Below are positions 4,058 through 18,852 of a DNA stretch of 64,000 bases, piece after piece. Position 1 is the first letter of the stretch, and each line of letters begins with the position of its first letter. The position numbers and the translations under genes are program-made. This DNA is from a virus, in IMG/VR virus record IMGVR_UViG_3300022213_000237, positions 105,568-169,567 of that record. The stretch is one strand, 5' to 3'. The notes under the pieces are model-generated. The model was given only the letters and a program-made list of their open reading frames with translations. It was not told the origin of the DNA and did no database searches.

Positions 4058-6694
4058 TTACTTCATCATGGTCATCACCAGATTTGGCTCAATTATTTTC
4101 CCGTTGTAAGAGCTGTCCGGCTTGAGGTAGTTTTCAATAGGGCCTTCAATAGTATCTTCGCCCATGTATCCGGTATTGGGCAACAATCCATCTAAATCCT
4201 CACCGTGTGTGAGGCCGTGCTTAAAGTTAGTACGAGAAACAATAGCTCTACCAACCTCAGCACTCCTACTTTTGGCCACATACAAAGTGATTCTCTTGTT
4301 TACTTGGGCCACAGGTGACCGATTAAGAGTGATTACGTTGCTGGCTGCCGTCATCGGACCCCAAGCCTCAAGAACGTCTTCCATTCTAAGCAAGCGATGT
4401 GTGGTGTCACCGCGATTAACCTTAGAACCTTCGCGATTGGTTTGAATAGCCAATAGGGCGTGGAAATCGCACTCGAGTGCCAGCTGGACGTAGTGCTCGT
4501 ATACGATTTCGATGATGGAACGCATAGCAAGCGCGCCTTTACCAGCTAAAGCTTGATTGGTGGTCAATTTAGCTGGATAGTCGGAAACCAGGAGATCAAA
4601 TCCTTTACCGGTTCGGGCTTTGCGTTCGTCCTGGACGCGACGAATTATGGGCATTATTTCCTCGACCGCCATTCCCGCTTTATTATATGGAATGTAGACG
4701 CAATTTTTCGCGATAATGTTCGCGACATGGTTCAGTAATTGAACCCCCTCAGGGGTTTTATAAAGGCGGAAAAGATCTTCTTCGGACCCCTTCAGACACG
4801 CCTTTAAGAGTTTGTTGCGAATATCGTGAGGGCGGCCTTCATGCGTCATCAATAGCACGCTATTGCCGTTCATAATGTTGTGACGAGCAACTGTAAGAAG
4901 GAAGGTGGTGTTGTGTGTAACCGTTAAATCGCCGAGCAAACAAAGACGGTCGCCATCAAGCGTAAATCCATAATAGTCGCCCTCACCGCAAGGCTCAACT
5001 CTAAATCCAGATGTATCGCACGGTTTACTGCCATCTTTGGCGCGTTTACGTTCTAATCTGACGGGAATTTCGGATAAAGCTCCGCTTAGACTCAGCGATA
5101 CATACTGACCCTCGGTTCCGTTTTGATCGGATTTTGTAATAAGCCTCTCTCCAACTTTAAGACCTAAGCTTCGGGCCAAGAAGGCGATGTCTGCTGCCAG
5201 ACGTTTGGATTTTTGGGTAATTTCTATCACTTTATCTCCTGCCCATCCGTCAGTATCTACGATTCCAGCCAACAACTCTAAACGTTGTTGACGAGATCCA
5301 GTAAGATATAAATGAGGGATATGTTTACATCCTAAAAGGTCTAGGCCTCTGAGACTAGAATGGGCGGTGCCTGACCCGATCGCCCGTATCAACCAAGCTC
5401 TATTGTGTGAATTGCCCACTACAGAGATGCCGTGACCACAGGACCTGATCCATGATTCCCACGTTAACGCCAATTCGTCATCCATAGTGGTTAGCACGGC
5501 GCCGGACGAATGCCCATCACCCAACCACATCCCCAGAACGTAAGCCGGAATCGGCTGATTTTGCTGCTGGAAATCTAACCCAACCCTCCAGAGCTTCATT
5601 CTGTTTTTCCAGTTGTTGGATTTCTCTAAATATTCATTAAGAGGAATGTTAACAATATCCCCCTTCCATAAGCATGGCTCTCCGTTCCCGCTAGTTGACG
5701 AATATCTGCCCCTTTGCCTTTCTTTGGGTTCATCGTCTGCACTACATTTTAAGCTTAAGATGTGGACATCGTTACAGATCCACGGATTGCCCCCAGTTTT
5801 GGGGATAATCTTAAATAATGGACCATGTCCTTTGGTGGTGGACAACACTTTGCGAGGTGCCCCATCCGGGCCCATCAATAAATCCCCCGACTTAATGTCC
5901 TCTACAGGAACTCTATGTCCCGAAAACATCAGTATTTCTGTACCTTTACCCCAGCATTTCCCAACGTTAGATGGAGCGAGAACAACAGTGGTGTCACCGC
6001 GTTGCAGTCCACCAGTCGTCTTAATAATACGACCTGTACCGGGCAGACCTTTAGCTTTTTCATCCGCATTTTGTTCCCGCTCGACGGCGCCATCGAGCAA
6101 TGCCTCATCAAGCAAAGGCAGTCCCGTCGACAGAGCCGCTTTCACGTCGTCGTACTTCTGCTGTAAATAGACTTCTGGATTGAGAAACGAAACCTCACGA
6201 CCTTCTTCGAAAGAAGCGACACCAAATTGCTTAACCGCGTCTTCCATGACGGCAGCGACTTCGCTCCATCGTTGGCGATTCCAGAGGTTTGAGGTCTTGA
6301 GAATGGCGTTCTGTAAAACTTTCGATTGTAGCCACGCAGTCAACTCCAATCTGATTTTATCCCATCTGATATCGGCTGTACGCTGCAGAGCGATATTCAG
6401 ACGCGCAGTGAGTCTTTGAGCGGTATCGCTACCCTCGATCACCCACTCCCTGGAGCCGGTCAACTCGCTCTGGGTTGGTGGTCTTCCAAGTGGGTGACTT
6501 ATGGACTGGATTATTTTGTATAATTTTTCGTCATACGGATTCACGAACCAGTCCGGCTGAACCCTGTGCCCCACCTGCATGAAGATCTTTGGGTCTTGAA
6601 TGAGGTGGCCGATGAAGGCCGACTGGTAGGCGTCGCTTAGCGGTAGGGTAGCGCTTACAGGTATTTCCACTTTAAGGGTTTCAACTGACGACAT
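4058..6694 (-). CDS. dnaB: DnaB/gp41-like replicative helicase, intein-containing
   Basis: Walker A APSNVGK[intein]T, THEG, LLVSDY, AIQTNR, VAKSR motifs. Start placed at ATG 6694; the ORF track extends to 6736. Confidence 0.88.
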   Translation of the reverse strand: MSSVETLKVEIPVSATLPLSDAYQSAFIGHLIQDPKIFMQVGHRVQPDWFVNPYDEKLYKIIQSISHPLGRPPTQSELTGSREWVIEGSDTAQRLTARLNIALQRTADIRWDKIRLELTAWLQSKVLQNAILKTSNLWNRQRWSEVAAVMEDAVKQFGVASFEEGREVSFLNPEVYLQQKYDDVKAALSTGLPLLDEALLDGAVEREQNADEKAKGLPGTGRIIKTTGGLQRGDTTVVLAPSNVGKCWGKGTEILMFSGHRVPVEDIKSGDLLMGPDGAPRKVLSTTKGHGPLFKIIPKTGGNPWICNDVHILSLKCSADDEPKERQRGRYSSTSGNGEPCLWKGDIVNIPLNEYLEKSNNWKNRMKLWRVGLDFQQQNQPIPAYVLGMWLGDGHSSGAVLTTMDDELALTWESWIRSCGHGISVVGNSHNRAWLIRAIGSGTAHSSLRGLDLLGCKHIPHLYLTGSRQQRLELLAGIVDTDGWAGDKVIEITQKSKRLAADIAFLARSLGLKVGERLITKSDQNGTEGQYVSLSLSGALSEIPVRLERKRAKDGSKPCDTSGFRVEPCGEGDYYGFTLDGDRLCLLGDLTVTHNTTFLLTVARHNIMNGNSVLLMTHEGRPHDIRNKLLKACLKGSEEDLFRLYKTPEGVQLLNHVANIIAKNCVYIPYNKAGMAVEEIMPIIRRVQDERKARTGKGFDLLVSDYPAKLTTNQALAGKGALAMRSIIEIVYEHYVQLALECDFHALLAIQTNREGSKVNRGDTTHRLLRMEDVLEAWGPMTAASNVITLNRSPVAQVNKRITLYVAKSRSAEVGRAIVSRTNFKHGLTHGEDLDGLLPNTGYMGEDTIEGPIENYLKPDSSYNGKIIEPNLVMTMMK
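4910..5956 (-). mobile_element. Intein (349 aa, class 1) with LAGLIDADG homing endonuclease in the helicase P-loop
   Basis: Begins CWGKGT, block B CNDVHIL, LGMWLGDG and LAGIVDTDG, ends VTHN followed by Thr; removal restores GKT. Confidence 0.95.
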
Positions 6695-6889
6695 GTATGT
6701 CCTTAGTCCTTTATCGGGGATACCGACATATACCACCCCGATCTTTTCGATCTTTTCGATAATATTAAAGCCAAGTTAGCTCGTTGAGGAAGATCACACG
6801 CTACCTGTTCAAACAGATGGCGTCTTCGCTTCTAACAGATAGCTGCTCGATCGTGTGCGCTTCAGTGCTCTATCTCCTTCCTAAAGTGT

Positions 6890-12910: not shown

Positions 12911-13690
12911 TTACTTCTTGTTATATACTTTAAGGATCTTTTCGTTTAGTTCTTGAATTAGATCTTCGTCAGTGCTCTGTTCAGTTGCTTCCAATGAAAT
13001 CGTTGGCGTTGATCTGCCAAAGAGTTTCACCGATAAAGATTGCTGCTCATCTGCCGTCAAACCGGTCAAAATACATGGCATTGCGGTAGTAGCGGCCTTG
13101 ACCTCAAGGGCTTTGGTAAGGATCCGATTCGTGAGGTCGAAAGCAAGAAGGTCGTCTCCGTTGCTGTTACGAACCGCCTTCTGAACGATATTTTCCACCT
13201 CAGCATCGCTTCGGAGCGTCAAATCCATATCCATGGAATCTAGTTTGGGCATTTGCAACGTGTGGATCCCGTGCCCTTGCATATATCGCTGCATAACCTG
13301 AGTCAGTAGAATCAGCTGCGCCGACATAAACTGAGGATTCTTTTCATCTAAAGAGGGCCTAACCTGGGCCGCGAATTCCTTGTAAAGAGAGTGACCGTCC
13401 ACCACCACTGCCCCTTCTTTTCCGGCTCTAACGGCAAAACTTTCGGCACGAGGTCCGGTCAAAAACACTTTAATGACTGAATTGCTAATCAGTGTCCGAT
13501 AAGCTTCGGTCAGACTTTTTACCTGATCTTCGGCTTCCCGCTGGCGAATAACAGCACCGGCACGAGTTGACGCATCCCAGCCATCAAGTGGGGAGTTAAG
13601 AACCTTAGTAAAGGCTTCAATATCGTTGAGAATGGCTTGAAGTCGTTCTTTTGCTACTTTTGCTTGTTTTTGTTGGTCTGTGAGTTCCAT
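12911..13690 (-). CDS. hypothetical protein
   Basis: ATG at 13690 just downstream of the dnaE-C stop; 259 aa. Confidence 0.65.
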   Translation of the reverse strand: MELTDQQKQAKVAKERLQAILNDIEAFTKVLNSPLDGWDASTRAGAVIRQREAEDQVKSLTEAYRTLISNSVIKVFLTGPRAESFAVRAGKEGAVVVDGHSLYKEFAAQVRPSLDEKNPQFMSAQLILLTQVMQRYMQGHGIHTLQMPKLDSMDMDLTLRSDAEVENIVQKAVRNSNGDDLLAFDLTNRILTKALEVKAATTAMPCILTGLTADEQQSLSVKLFGRSTPTISLEATEQSTDEDLIQELNEKILKVYNKK

Positions 13691-13694
13691 TATA

Positions 13695-15788
13695 TTACTC
13701 CTGGGAGGTTTCTTCCGGCTCTTCTGAGAGTGGGGGTGCAACTACTAATATCGCGTCGATCGCAAAAGGTCTGTTGGATTTGTATCGCGTGAGATGCAGT
13801 ATCGCGATCGACCCAGCCATATCCTTAGGAGCTTCGAGATGTCCTGATTCTCGATCCGGCCACTTAACGAATAAGAATTGTTCACCATCTACGTCAAAAA
13901 TTACTTCTACGGCAGATTTAGTTCCACCCTTGTAGCTGAATCGTCTTTCGGAAATGATATATCCAGCTACCGTGCAGGCAACATGCTGGCCATCATAAAT
14001 CTCAAATTCTTCGTTATAGTATCTAAGCTGTGCGCCATCAACCAGCGGCACGGCTTCAAGTTTACGGTCGCTGCCGATACCCATCTGACGCTTCATGTCC
14101 GCAATACTTTCTGCAGTACTGGGCAGATACCAATAGTTGCCTTTACCGTCGCTAGTGACACCGTCGATCCGCATATCAACCAAAATAGGCACCACGCTGT
14201 TGGTGTAAATTGGCAAAATGTTTTTCTGCATCTGGAATCTAGTCAACGGATTTAAGTCCACGTACTTTTTATCGACTTTACCTTTTTTAGCTTTCTTTCC
14301 TGTAAGGGCCTGAGTTACATTCGCCACTTCTTGTTCGTAATAATCAAGTTTGTCGTTAACGTGTCTCAATTCTGACGGGAAAAGGCTGTCCATAACGCCA
14401 GAAACAATTAGCTTGCCGACTACGCCTCTATTTAGGGCGCTGAGTCCGGCTTTAACTTTTTGCTTACCTTTGGCGTCAAGCATTGGAGTACCGTCTTCGT
14501 TTACTCGCAATGTGGCTCCAGCCATCTTTTTGCGGACTATTTTTTCAACAAAATCGGTGACGCTTAAATATGGGCGACCAGCGCAAAGTTCGGCATGAGC
14601 TGTGGGACCAACGCCGTTAATAAAGCTCAAAGGCGCTCGGATTCTATCGCCCTGGATTTCAAATTCGTCGCCCGAATACCGCACATCCGGTAAGTCGATC
14701 CACTGTTTGCAATAACGCCAAAACTTTTCAGCAATTTCCTTCTTGTCGGCGTTTTTTAGCACCGCACACCACCACTCGTTGGGGTAGTAATGTTTTAGAT
14801 AGGCGCAAGCATAGGCGGTGACGGAATAGCAGATTGAGTGACTTTTGTTAAAGCCGTATTGTCCAAAGGTGACTATCTGGTTCCAGACCTTCTCCGAGTC
14901 TTCTTTACCGATTTTCTCGGAAGCTTTGGCAATAAAGTTTGGATACGCTTCCAATACCTTAGCCATCTTCTTCTTCGCAATGTTAGTGCGAAAGGTATTG
15001 GCTTCTATGCCAGTGCAACCAGTCAAATGCTGATACAACTTCTGTAATTGTTCTTGGTATACAATTACGCCGTAAGTCTCTGGAAGCAGTGCGTCTAGTG
15101 CTTTAATTGGATCGGATGGAGGAAGGCCTTTAGCTCTGTTGGCGTATTCAACCAACATATTATGTTCTCGGCCAGTAATCGGGTCCTTGACCTTAGCATC
15201 CAGAGGACCTGGGCGATCTAGAGCCGTGAAGGCGCTTATTGCTTCAATCGAGTCAATAGCTTTCACACCCGCCGATTTGTCGTAGTTAAATTGAGTCAAC
15301 CATTGTTTGGCGGAGTTGGTATTGAGCTGGAATACGGTTTCTGTTTTACCTTCGGCAATGTCGTTGAATACGGCTTGGTCTTCGGGAAGGTCCCAAATAT
15401 CCATTGGCACACCAGTCGTGGGATTGGGTACGATACGAAATCCTGGAACTCGGCGACCATTAAGTTTGATATCGGATTCAAAGTCTCGGTCTGGGTATTT
15501 TGCTTGAATGAGCTTAATTGCGGCACCGATGTCCTTCAGGGAATTGAGCCCGAGGAAATCCATTTTCAAACCACCTACGGCCTCAACACTCCCCGCCGTG
15601 TATTGGGTGGTACGAAATCCGCTGATAGTGGTCGTGGGTATGAAATTACTGATGGGCTCATTTGCGATGACAAAGCCGCAATTATGCATTACAACGCCAG
15701 AGGCGTGAACGAAACTATGGTGTTCGTGATTAACAGATAAATCATATACCTGTTCTGGTTCTTTTATTCGTGCTGATATTATCTTCAT
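13695..15788 (-). CDS. dnaE: DNA polymerase III alpha subunit, C-terminal part, preceded by C-intein
   Basis: After 36-aa IntC: CGFVI, LKMDFLGL, VFQL, RPGP, TYGVIVYQEQ, YGFNKSH, INGVG HhH, C-terminal OB fold. Confidence 0.93.
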   Translation of the reverse strand: MKIISARIKEPEQVYDLSVNHEHHSFVHASGVVMHNCGFVIANEPISNFIPTTTISGFRTTQYTAGSVEAVGGLKMDFLGLNSLKDIGAAIKLIQAKYPDRDFESDIKLNGRRVPGFRIVPNPTTGVPMDIWDLPEDQAVFNDIAEGKTETVFQLNTNSAKQWLTQFNYDKSAGVKAIDSIEAISAFTALDRPGPLDAKVKDPITGREHNMLVEYANRAKGLPPSDPIKALDALLPETYGVIVYQEQLQKLYQHLTGCTGIEANTFRTNIAKKKMAKVLEAYPNFIAKASEKIGKEDSEKVWNQIVTFGQYGFNKSHSICYSVTAYACAYLKHYYPNEWWCAVLKNADKKEIAEKFWRYCKQWIDLPDVRYSGDEFEIQGDRIRAPLSFINGVGPTAHAELCAGRPYLSVTDFVEKIVRKKMAGATLRVNEDGTPMLDAKGKQKVKAGLSALNRGVVGKLIVSGVMDSLFPSELRHVNDKLDYYEQEVANVTQALTGKKAKKGKVDKKYVDLNPLTRFQMQKNILPIYTNSVVPILVDMRIDGVTSDGKGNYWYLPSTAESIADMKRQMGIGSDRKLEAVPLVDGAQLRYYNEEFEIYDGQHVACTVAGYIISERRFSYKGGTKSAVEVIFDVDGEQFLFVKWPDRESGHLEAPKDMAGSIAILHLTRYKSNRPFAIDAILVVAPPLSEEPEETSQE
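15681..15788 (-). mobile_element. split intein C-fragment (IntC, 36 aa)
   Basis: MKIISARIKEPEQVYDLSV...GVVMHN then Cys+1; blocks F and G only. Confidence 0.93.
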
Positions 15789-16669
15789 GGATCTATCTTA
15801 CTAAGTAGCTTTCCGATCTCCAACATCACTTCGTACGATACATATCTTCCACGCATCCAATTACAGCGTAAACAAGACGGTACACAGTTTTTCTTAATGT
15901 GACCTATGTCATTGTTTTTACGATCCAGACCGGTAGCAGGTCTTCCGCAATAACAACAAGGAGAACTGCGAGCCTCTAACACGTCATCCACGGTAAGATC
16001 AAAATCCCTTCTTTTGTCTTTATCTCTTCTAACGTAAGAGTGAAGAAGTTTTTTAGCTGCCCGAAGAGTGTTTTGAATTGGGGAGTCTTTAAATCTAGTA
16101 GACTTTACACATTCTTTACACCAATAATTCTGTAGACGTATCACTGACCAACGCTGTTTCCAGCGATGGCCTACAGCGCATTCCCAAGTCGAATGGCATG
16201 AAGCTTTGTCGGACCATTCAATCAACTTACCTCCCTTGAGCTTAACGTATTCGATTGCCTCCTTTTTTAGTGGGCGTTGGCGACGAGAACAAATCCTACA
16301 TGGATTACGCGGCGGTTCAACCGAACGATAACTTCCTAATATTGTACTTCCACATTGGATATGGGTAAGTTTCAGGTTAGGTTCTGAAACCCCCTTGTAG
16401 TCTCCAGGATTTTCTACTCGATACCCCCATGAAAACAACTGAGATTCTATGAATTCTTTACTGTGCTTGGTTCTACCAGATCCACGCCTAGCTCGAATGC
16501 CTTTTGAATTCCCATCCACCCCTCTACGGTAAGTATTTGGTGGTCTGGAGTACAACATAGCTTTGCTCCATTTTCTAATGTGTATTCCGTTATCGTTCGA
16601 ACCCCCTGATTTATTAAAAGGGCCGTGGCGTTGGCGCCTTGTCCTGTATTTATTATTTGTTCGTTGCAT
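15785..16669 (-). CDS. free-standing HNH/His-Me homing endonuclease between the dnaE halves (start uncertain)
   Basis: Zinc-ribbon repeats (WECAVGHRW..WCKEC) and CCYCG..GLDRKNNDIGH..NCVPSCLRCNWMRG; TGA overlaps the IntC ATG (ATGA); 5' part overlaps IntN in another frame. Confidence 0.8.
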   Translation of the reverse strand: MQRTNNKYRTRRQRHGPFNKSGGSNDNGIHIRKWSKAMLYSRPPNTYRRGVDGNSKGIRARRGSGRTKHSKEFIESQLFSWGYRVENPGDYKGVSEPNLKLTHIQCGSTILGSYRSVEPPRNPCRICSRRQRPLKKEAIEYVKLKGGKLIEWSDKASCHSTWECAVGHRWKQRWSVIRLQNYWCKECVKSTRFKDSPIQNTLRAAKKLLHSYVRRDKDKRRDFDLTVDDVLEARSSPCCYCGRPATGLDRKNNDIGHIKKNCVPSCLRCNWMRGRYVSYEVMLEIGKLLSKIDP

Positions 16670-18621
16670 TCGACAATATCCTTTATTTGTCCGTCAGAAA
16701 GTAAGATTGCCTCCCGCGCCGGAAGACAGGCGTGGCGGCTTTTTTGTCGTGCGATACCCAACATTTTCTTAACGATTTCCCATTCTTGTGGGTATCTCTG
16801 AATATACTCCTTAAGCTCCTGAGATTCGTCAATCAAACCTCTTATTTCTTTTCCGTCGTCACCCGTGTACCCAAACACAAAATCGGCATCATCAACACCC
16901 TGAGGCGGCATCGGAAGCTTTTTGCATAAGACTTCAATCTCAGCATCTACGTGGCCATGTAGTGAACGATGAACATCTTTGATAGATGACTTGAGACGTA
17001 GCATCGTATTCGTTGAAATTGCGGCCACGCAATCGGCAAAGCGATTAAACAACCACCCGCGCTCGGGGTCGATAAGGGGGTCTCTATCCGGAAAATCCAT
17101 GTCAATGTCCGGCAGCTTCCCGTCCTCGATACGGTCCTTCGTCAGAAAGCGGTCTTCTGAGAGGTCGTACTTGAGTGGGTCGACGTGAGTGACACCAAGA
17201 TAGTAAACTGCGGATAGGCCGCCTGCGGAGCCACGACCCGCACCGCTAAGTAATCGTTGTTGTTCGTAAAAGGAACAAACTTCTTCGGCAATAAACAAGT
17301 AAGGCAGGAGATCTATTTTGCCGTTGTGATGTAACAGTTCTACTTCTTTCTTTAAACGGGATACGCGTGTCGGATTACCCCAATCCATGCGCCCGTGTTT
17401 GTCGAGCAGGATCTTAAAATACTTAAGAGTATTTGATGGATAGAATGACGCAGGTAAGGATTTGCGATCTGTGAATTTGAAGTCCTTGAAACGCTGACTC
17501 CATTCAATATTTGAGTCTACCATGGATTCGAAGTCGCTCTCCGACATCCCCATCACACCTTTAAAGTAAGACCATGCTTCAGCAGAATCGAACCTGTGAT
17601 ACGAATTTGCGAATTTCCACGAACCACCAGAGCTTCCGAGACGGGAATCCTGGACAATCTTTTCATCTTTGGTGGCGAAATGCGCATCGTCGGAAAGCAA
17701 TATTTTATCGCCACGAGTTCTAGCGAGATGCAACATGAATCGATTGGCGGCCAACTGAACATCGCCATCAGGACACCAAGGCTGGCATTCATTCTTTAGA
17801 AAGTCCTCAACGAGCTTGCACTCGACAATGACTTTGGGTTCGCGTTCCTCCCATTTACGGTTATTCATTACCGCAACCAACAAGCCAACATCCTTACCCC
17901 GTGAAACAGCTTTGGCTAAGTCTTCGGCACTGACGCCATCCGAGAATTTAGTGGTCTTAAGCTTTTTCTCTTTCCAGAACTTAAATTTCTCTCCGCCTTC
18001 AATAGTAACAAAGACACCATTGACCCAGTATTTGTCACAAACATGCGGAAATACTTCAACGTAGAACTTGTTTCCAAACATCGACTTGAGACGTTCGTAG
18101 TATTTAATGGCAATGTCTGGGCGATCCGAAAGCAGGTGGCGTTGCACCATGCCGATTAGACATCCGGAAGTAGCGGTAATGTTGTATTGTGAGAGTCTTT
18201 CTAGATTTTCCCAAGAGAACAACGGCTTCCTTTCGGAGCCGTGCTGCTCTGCGCGAGCATCAGCTAAAGAAAGTTCTTTGACTAACGCCTCGTATCCCTT
18301 TTGGTCTTGGGCGTGAAGCGTAATGTGGTAGTATTTGTTGTAGGAGGCGAAAGTTCCTTTAGCGTCCTTTTCGATACCTGCTGCCTTGAGAATCGGGCAA
18401 TCATCATCTCTAAAATAGCCCTCGACACCCAAAATAGGAATAATGTTGTTCTTTTTGGCAAGGTCGTACACTTCACGACATGCGCCCATAGAACCGTGAT
18501 CAGTACACGTTGTCACTCCCGTACCAAGCTGTATTTCTCTTTCTACAAACGCTTCTGGGGTGGAAGCCGTATCTAATGATTGTTGGTGACAGTGAGGAGT
18601 TGGAAAATTCTTAAAAGCCAT
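16447..18621 (-). CDS. dnaE: DNA polymerase III alpha subunit, N-terminal part, ending in N-intein
   Basis: PHP domain (HCH, TDHG, GVEGY, SGCL, DAHF), GAGRGSAGG, catalytic PDIDMD, RQKSRHA then IntN. Confidence 0.93.
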   Translation of the reverse strand: MAFKNFPTPHCHQQSLDTASTPEAFVEREIQLGTGVTTCTDHGSMGACREVYDLAKKNNIIPILGVEGYFRDDDCPILKAAGIEKDAKGTFASYNKYYHITLHAQDQKGYEALVKELSLADARAEQHGSERKPLFSWENLERLSQYNITATSGCLIGMVQRHLLSDRPDIAIKYYERLKSMFGNKFYVEVFPHVCDKYWVNGVFVTIEGGEKFKFWKEKKLKTTKFSDGVSAEDLAKAVSRGKDVGLLVAVMNNRKWEEREPKVIVECKLVEDFLKNECQPWCPDGDVQLAANRFMLHLARTRGDKILLSDDAHFATKDEKIVQDSRLGSSGGSWKFANSYHRFDSAEAWSYFKGVMGMSESDFESMVDSNIEWSQRFKDFKFTDRKSLPASFYPSNTLKYFKILLDKHGRMDWGNPTRVSRLKKEVELLHHNGKIDLLPYLFIAEEVCSFYEQQRLLSGAGRGSAGGLSAVYYLGVTHVDPLKYDLSEDRFLTKDRIEDGKLPDIDMDFPDRDPLIDPERGWLFNRFADCVAAISTNTMLRLKSSIKDVHRSLHGHVDAEIEVLCKKLPMPPQGVDDADFVFGYTGDDGKEIRGLIDESQELKEYIQRYPQEWEIVKKMLGIARQKSRHACLPAREAILLSDGQIKDIVECNEQIINTGQGANATALLINQGVRTITEYTLENGAKLCCTPDHQILTVEGWMGIQKAFELGVDLVEPSTVKNS
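16450..16728 (-). mobile_element. split intein N-fragment (IntN, 93 aa)
   Basis: CLPAREAILLSDG (block A), LCCTPDHQILTVEGW (block B TxxH), then stop. Confidence 0.93.
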
Positions 18622-18630
18622 TACCCCTGA

Positions 18631-18852
18631 CTATATCGAGGGATCTGCTAACTTAGCTCTCAACCTCATGACGATATCGTTATAGATCCGATGAACGTCT
18701 TCAGCGGTAATCATAAGAGCCTGGGCGACGGTTCGGTCGGGTGCGCCCTCAGGAAAGCGCTCAATCACTCTAGTCAGACTGTAGTCCAATCTCTTGAGGT
18801 AAACAAACTCTGGGTCATTGTTGATACGAAACAAAGCTTCTTCAGTCGTCAT
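18631..18852 (-). CDS. small HTH-like protein
   Basis: 73 aa; PDRTVAQALMITAEDVHRIY helix-turn-helix-like. Confidence 0.5.
   Translation of the reverse strand: MTTEEALFRINNDPEFVYLKRLDYSLTRVIERFPEGAPDRTVAQALMITAEDVHRIYNDIVMRLRAKLADPSI

Follow-up and report, generated by a model that had tools for sequence, protein, structure and literature searches.

A probable fractured dnaE gene with a split intein and an HNH endonuclease gene in an Mx1-like phage

A dnaE gene spread over three reading frames

We analyzed a 64,000-nucleotide stretch of viral DNA (the window; positions 105,568 to 169,567 of IMG/VR record IMGVR_UViG_3300022213_000237) in which dnaE, the gene for the alpha subunit of DNA polymerase III (Pol III), occurs in pieces together with sequences resembling the two halves of an intein. 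The parent record, from a sediment metagenome, is 169,567 bp long and rated complete by CheckV, and the nearest named relative of this phage is Myxococcus phage Mx1 (169,621 bp). The locus consists of three open reading frames (ORFs), which lie in three different frames of the minus strand. The first (18621 to 16447, 724 amino acids) encodes the N-terminal part of DnaE followed by the putative N-terminal half of an intein (IntN). The second (16669 to 15785) is an open frame of 294 amino acids that carries the frame of an HNH nuclease, and the third (15788 to 13695, 697 amino acids) opens with the putative C-terminal half of the intein (IntC) and continues into the C-terminal part of DnaE. When the junctions were translated in three frames, the DnaE-N-IntN frame was stop-rich past its TAG and the IntC-DnaE-C frame was stop-rich ahead of its ATG; across the gap, the nuclease frame alone stayed open.

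The polymerase portions of the first and third ORFs (the exteins) divide the protein between them. The N-extein (631 amino acids, 16729 to 18621, minus strand) contains the PHP domain and the start of the Pol III alpha catalytic domain (PF02811, 4.7e-23; PF07733, 9.7e-27) and ends in RQKSRHA. The C-extein (661 amino acids plus the stop codon, 13695 to 15680, minus strand) starts at the residue that would be Cys+1 of the intein (CGFVIANEP) and carries the end of the catalytic domain together with the fingers and the HhH region (PF17657, 3.1e-21; PF14579, 1.7e-8). Because the first ORF covers the DNA polymerase family PHROG 405 up to profile position 556 and the third covers it from position 548, these ORFs represent successive parts of a single polymerase.

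Mx1 provides the matching allele without an interruption. Its DnaE is encoded by a single uninterrupted gene of 1289 amino acids in the same neighborhood as in the window, with a metallophosphatase upstream and SSB and RecA downstream. Aligned over the junction, Mx1 reads GISRQKSRHA-CAYVIADE, while the first window ORF reads GIARQKSRHA followed by 93 extra residues and a stop, and the third opens with 36 extra residues and then reads CGFVIANE. Searched separately with tblastn, the N-extein was 69% identical to residues 1 to 631 of Mx1 DnaE and the C-extein 61% identical to its C-terminal part; both were collinear with Mx1 DnaE and complete, with nothing missing. Since the uninterrupted Mx1 protein aligns collinearly over the junction, it fixes the boundaries of IntN and IntC. 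The computed spliced product has 1292 amino acids (631 + 661). An earlier note on this DNA, made from the letters alone, had proposed these same sizes and a restored RQKSRHA-CGFVI junction, and the alignment with Mx1 shows the sizes to be correct to the residue and the junction to fall where the Mx1 sequence runs on without a break.

Among nine relatives (Mx1 and eight IMG/VR contigs found with the N-extein), none has an intein-sized interruption at this site, which we refer to as RHA/C. Seven empty sites were read as DNA, and all have Cys or Ser at +1. By alignment, the putative intein is a precise in-frame insertion relative to the intein-less allele. Alleles that bear it occur here and there among diverged relatives, and this patchy presence fits a mobile element.

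A second assembly recovered the same three-ORF layout: in its contig of 169,568 bp, the 724-amino-acid N-terminal piece carries one substitution (V472A) and the C-terminal piece is identical. The Logan contig of sequencing run X1 spans positions 13600 to 18700 with this same substitution and no indel. Promoter-like and terminator-like sites in the region were no commoner than in shuffles, and a 9-bp hairpin with a T-rich run at 16708 to 16728, which overlies codons 1 to 7 of IntN, is for that reason probably due to chance.

The intein halves and the nuclease gene

IntN (93 amino acids, CLPAREA...VKNS, 16450 to 16728, minus strand) ends at a TAG stop codon (16449 to 16447), and IntC (36 amino acids, MKIISAR...VVMHN, MKIISARIKEPEQVYDLSVNHEHHSFVHASGVVMHN, 15681 to 15788, minus strand) comprises blocks F and G. 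IntN block A contains Cys1 in CLPAREAILL, a cysteine present in 24/24 members of the family described below, and block B contains TPDH at residues 59 to 62, which is likewise conserved in the family. In IntC, blocks F and G (VYDLSV.HEHHSF, VYDLSVNHEHHSF...VVMHN/C) supply a penultimate His and a terminal Asn, followed by Cys+1. All of the residues predicted to carry out class-1 splicing (Cys1, TPDH, His-Asn, and Cys+1) are therefore intact, as judged from these motifs. Both halves also scored above the curated cut-offs of the corresponding NCBIfam models: IntN reached 24.7 bits against TIGR01445 (intein_Nterm; cut-off, 24.5) and IntC 25.2 bits against TIGR01443 (intein_Cterm; cut-off, 15.6).

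The nearest solved structure to IntN was the Npu DnaE intein, a weak match (28.6 bits, E value of 1.2e-5) with about 30% identity over 73 aligned residues, as counted from the alignment. Because this alignment reaches the very end of IntN, the break in the window intein falls at the usual insertion point of an endonuclease. It lies between block B and block F, which is precisely where relatives carry an HNH domain or what remains of one. The match of IntN to gp41-1 (E value of 0.72) was far more distant than that to the Npu DnaE intein, and IntC alone, which is too short, had no significant sequence match in the Protein Data Bank (PDB). That the cyanobacterial DnaE intein is specially related to this one is unproven, and we rejected the idea, since in a large library, inteins from unrelated hosts scored equally well or better. 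Orthogonality, which the earlier note had thought probable, is a claim that this analysis does not support.

The middle ORF matched the PHROG families phrog_1035 ("endonuclease VII," 4.2e-10) and phrog_559 ("HNH endonuclease," 3.2e-6), and it had no match in Pfam, NCBIfam, or PDB sequences. An AlphaFold (AF2) model of the nuclease had a mean pLDDT score (predicted local distance difference test) of 76, rising to about 90 over the C-terminal 90 residues. The best PDB match of this model was the HNH restriction enzyme PacI (3LDY; E value of 3.4e-4, probability of 1.0), and the next were the Gme HNH nickase and other HNH enzymes. The last ~160 residues align with the HNH parts of relatives in which the nuclease is fused to IntN, and the window and these relatives have in common the invariant pattern C..C.R...G..R..N..GH...NC...CLRCNWMRG.Y...E.M...G..L...DP. 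On the basis of this model, the middle ORF encodes an HNH-type nuclease with a PacI-like predicted fold, a CxxC zinc-ligand motif, and a His/Asn motif.

The N terminus of the window nuclease carries an additional zinc-ribbon-like module that is missing from the fused forms and present in P0134, a free-standing homologue of 239 amino acids (46% identity, 98% coverage). The start of P0134 (MDTNSKS) aligns with VDGNSKG in the window, at GTG 16519. We prefer this codon because the Met of P0134 falls at the homologous position, and the nuclease gene thus most likely extends from 16519 to 15785 on the minus strand and encodes 244 amino acids; alternative starts are ATG 16558, which has GGAG 7 nucleotides (nt) upstream, and TTG 16438. 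From GTG 16519, the gene would overprint the final 24 codons of IntN, overlapping the end of that cistron by 73 nt, and its TGA (15787 to 15785) overlaps the ATG of IntC in the sequence ATGA. The earlier note had placed an HNH gene between the two halves of the polymerase. The assignment to the HNH type held, as seen in the PHROG matches and the PacI-like fold; its placement needs amending, because the gene overlaps both neighboring cistrons and so does not lie cleanly between them.

Sequencing run X2, which belongs to another study and is likewise a sediment metagenome, contained a 183-nt contig that matches positions 15872 to 16054, within the HNH gene, with 1 mismatch. This contig may stem from a close relative or from a mobile nuclease gene copy. 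The run otherwise contained only small pieces of dnaE at 90 to 95% identity, which is too little to speak to habitat or independent occurrence.

A family of inteins at the same dnaE site

A search with the junction and IntN identified 23 other metagenomic DnaE proteins with a homologous intein at R-x-K-x-R-H-A/C. With the window, these form a family of 24, which is a lower bound, and the architectures of the relatives are taken from protein calls only. Thirteen of the 24 members stop 88 to 111 amino acids after Cys1, and six are in-frame IntN-HNH fusions that end in (I/V)DP. Of the two contiguous members, P0021 is a mini-intein of 150 amino acids that retains ~20 amino acids from the beginning of the nuclease, and P0036 is an intein of 290 amino acids with a different insert. 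The remaining three have other tails. Five partner proteins open with IntC; P0008, P0010, and P0012 are full-length, starting with M(K/R)I(V/I) and carrying a 36-amino-acid IntC, and P0009 and P0011 were called from a later Met. Since the exteins of the relatives are ~45 to 57% identical to those of the window, these stop and start positions have been kept across deep divergence. The intein thus belongs to a family, found split, half-fused, and contiguous in at least 24 metagenomic proteins at one dnaE site, and the proposal that the window pair was independently derived is not supported.

Family members were found among metagenomic proteins. A megablast search returned no phage record matching the locus, and scans of IMG/VR and of one JGI metagenome with the IntN and IntC peptides and a degenerate DLSVxHEHHSF pattern returned 0 loci; as a control, the pattern does match the window.

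In a tree of the 24 IntN sequences, 2 of 21 branches were supported, and because of this poor resolution, the order in which the split, fused, and contiguous states arose cannot be inferred. We regard it as an even call whether the RHA/C site preserves a natural series of nuclease gain and loss, comprising an empty site, a mini-intein, an intein with a different insert, a half-fused form, and a fully fractured form. In the half-fused members, a DnaE-N-IntN-HNH precursor would presumably be followed by an IntC-DnaE-C cistron coupled to it through ATGA. If these half-fused forms are real, the nuclease would be made within the polymerase precursor and freed by trans-splicing, and they would represent an intermediate of step IIIa in the gene-breaking model of 2009.

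Several other dnaE genes are interrupted at further sites. P0017, a metagenomic protein of 290 amino acids, is apparently the middle piece of a three-piece dnaE, since it opens with the IntC of another split intein (LAVHN/SAGG) and closes with an IntN of the RHA/C family. Two further metagenomic proteins, P0085 and P0103, are N-terminal pieces of DnaE that end in an IntN at GIFQ/C and LDMRA/C, respectively. Their sites imply that dnaE is fractured by split inteins at several points, as in Dassa et al. 2009 (PMC2677866). The dnaE of a related phage (locus L009, 6001 to 11381) carries a contiguous intein of ~430 amino acids with an insert that looks like LAGLIDADG, at the site GSSRG/CLEGD...AVHN/SAGG. 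This gene is in addition broken near residue 520, where two ORFs overlap and intein motifs are absent. The same non-intein cut near residue 520 is present in a second dnaE (locus L006, 4362 to 9141), where an HNH ORF of 222 amino acids (6142 to 6810) lies on the opposite strand between the dnaE halves.

Trans-splicing, alternatives, and relation to known fractured genes

We consider it probable, with good confidence, that this Mx1-like myxophage has a genuinely fractured dnaE in which a split intein is accompanied by an HNH homing-endonuclease gene. In the proposed mechanism, a single minus-strand transcription unit would yield three proteins: DnaE-N(631)-IntN(93), the HNH endonuclease, and IntC(36)-DnaE-C(661). 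Translation of the nuclease would most likely initiate at GTG 16519, inside IntN, and end on the ATGA at which IntC starts. IntN and IntC would then associate and fold into one HINT domain, and class-1 trans-splicing would proceed through an N-S acyl shift at Cys1, trans-thioesterification to Cys+1, cyclization of the terminal Asn, and an S-N shift. The product would be a seamless Pol III alpha of 1292 amino acids in which the RQKSRHA-CGFVIANE motif is restored. The HNH protein would serve as the engine of mobility, presumably cutting the intein-less dnaE of co-infecting relatives near RHA/C(S), and repair after the cut would copy the entire cassette of IntN, homing-endonuclease gene, and IntC.

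Four observations weigh against this interpretation. Matches to the Pfam model Intein_splicing fall under the cut-off of that model. The net charges of IntN (-6) and IntC (-1) are only weakly complementary, and fast split inteins usually have a stronger segregation of charge between their halves. GTG 16519 lacks a well-spaced Shine-Dalgarno sequence, which leaves the start of the nuclease uncertain. Finally, run X1 probably represents the source sample and therefore supplies a second assembly, not independent data.

We weighed three alternatives. In the first, which we regard as improbable, the intein halves do not splice and only dock the polymerase pieces to each other noncovalently, as has been proposed for the fragmented NrdA of phage Aeh1. 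Against this, Cys1, T-x-x-H, the Asp and His of block F, the His-Asn pair, and Cys/Ser+1 are intact and conserved in the family, and the halves retain their full lengths of 93 and 36 amino acids rather than having shrunk to relics.

A programmed -1 frameshift late in IntN, which would produce a DnaE-N-IntN-HNH fusion from which the nuclease is freed on splicing, is more improbable again. The HNH frame is indeed -1 relative to IntN and stays open for 223 nt inside it, no ATG directly follows the IntN stop, and in-frame IntN-HNH fusions are common in relatives. However, the overlap contains no in-register X_XXY_YYZ slippery heptamer, the P0134 start codon points to initiation at GTG 16519, and the extra N-terminal module of the window nuclease is missing from the fused forms.

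An assembly artefact, in which two indel errors split one contiguous IntN-HNH-IntC intein into three frames, is very unlikely: contiguous alleles (P0021 and P0036) and in-frame IntN-HNH alleles do occur at RHA/C in relatives, and the comparison was made on assembled contigs, but the two assemblies agree without an indel, the stops of 13 relatives and the Met starts of three IntC partners fall at the same places, the HNH frame overlaps IntN by at least 73 nt and carries the N-terminal module found in P0134, and the ATGA overlap after (I/V)DP fits a layout in which the nuclease of every relative ends in DP. Because of the IntN overlap and the additional nuclease module, a simple indel could not yield the fused form. 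The two-indel scenario, which the earlier note had raised against its own proposal, is thus contradicted by the second assembly and by relatives, in which the stops and starts are conserved in position. The central claim of the note, that of a naturally split intein in a fractured dnaE at a non-cyanobacterial site, is well supported at the level of sequence.

With a fractured dnaE as the preferred interpretation, the arrangement is not new in kind, as the earlier note had recognized. Fractured genes were defined by Dassa, London, Stoddard, Schueler-Furman, and Pietrokovski in 2009 (PMC2677866), and split inteins in fractured dnaE genes have been known from that year on; that paper describes three such loci (DnaE-1 to DnaE-3) from ocean metagenomes, with split inteins at non-cyanobacterial integration points. 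The window locus resembles the fractured genes of that study in having adjacent pieces on the same strand, a split intein broken at the endonuclease point, and a nuclease gene in the middle. It differs in its nuclease: those reported in 2009 were of the GIY-YIG type or Vsr-like, and HNH nucleases were put forward only as a further type that could fracture genes (PMC2677866), whereas the window nuclease is of the HNH type, with a PacI-like predicted fold, and its frame overlaps IntN.

The window intein also resembles the split DnaE inteins of the cyanobacterial Ssp and Npu systems, with which it has in common the host protein, the position of the intein break, an IntN of ~100 amino acids, and an IntC of 36 amino acids; two cyanobacterial half-gene models, NF007079 and NF005616, also gave weak matches. 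It differs from Npu and Ssp in its insertion site, since RHA/C lies 276 residues upstream of the FAEY/CFNKSH-type site. That cyanobacterial split site is uninterrupted in the window, as had been noted from the sequence: the C-extein reads QYGFNKSHS, with FNKSH at residue 312 of the C-terminal fragment. It differs further in that its halves are adjacent, whereas the cyanobacterial halves are at separate loci, and in that it is accompanied by a nuclease gene. With gp41-1 and NrdJ-1, the window locus has in common a phage-type fractured gene and a typically split intein, but the hosts of those inteins differ and their sequences are very distant. Both gp41-1 and NrdJ-1 come from the same 2009 data set and are fast ligation tools.

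Two further systems are comparable in the position of the nuclease gene. A 2025 preprint describes endonuclease VII-like nucleases that lie out of frame inside contiguous actinophage inteins. Like those, the window has a nuclease of the HNH/endonuclease VII superfamily at the endonuclease position and in a different frame; unlike those, in which the intein frame stays open and the intein is contiguous, the window IntN stops and IntC restarts, so that the intein is split. The nrdA/mobE locus of Aeh1 (cited in PMC2677866; PMC3045599) similarly has an HNH homing-endonuclease gene between the halves of an essential gene for replication or nucleotide metabolism, but it has no intein, and the halves assemble noncovalently. 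The non-intein dnaE cut at L006 and L009 is comparable to this arrangement.

Naturally split inteins are working parts of protein ligation, cyclization, and split-protein logic. Few of them are both fast and mutually orthogonal, and the window pair, with its native Cys+1 junction, is therefore a candidate tool on the basis of its sequence. About two dozen natural variants are available to compare with it. The value of the finding lies more in the family than in the window, because one site is found empty, contiguous, half-fused, and fully fractured in diverged Mx1-like phages. The RHA/C series could make the proposed route between a free-standing nuclease and the nuclease domain of an intein testable.

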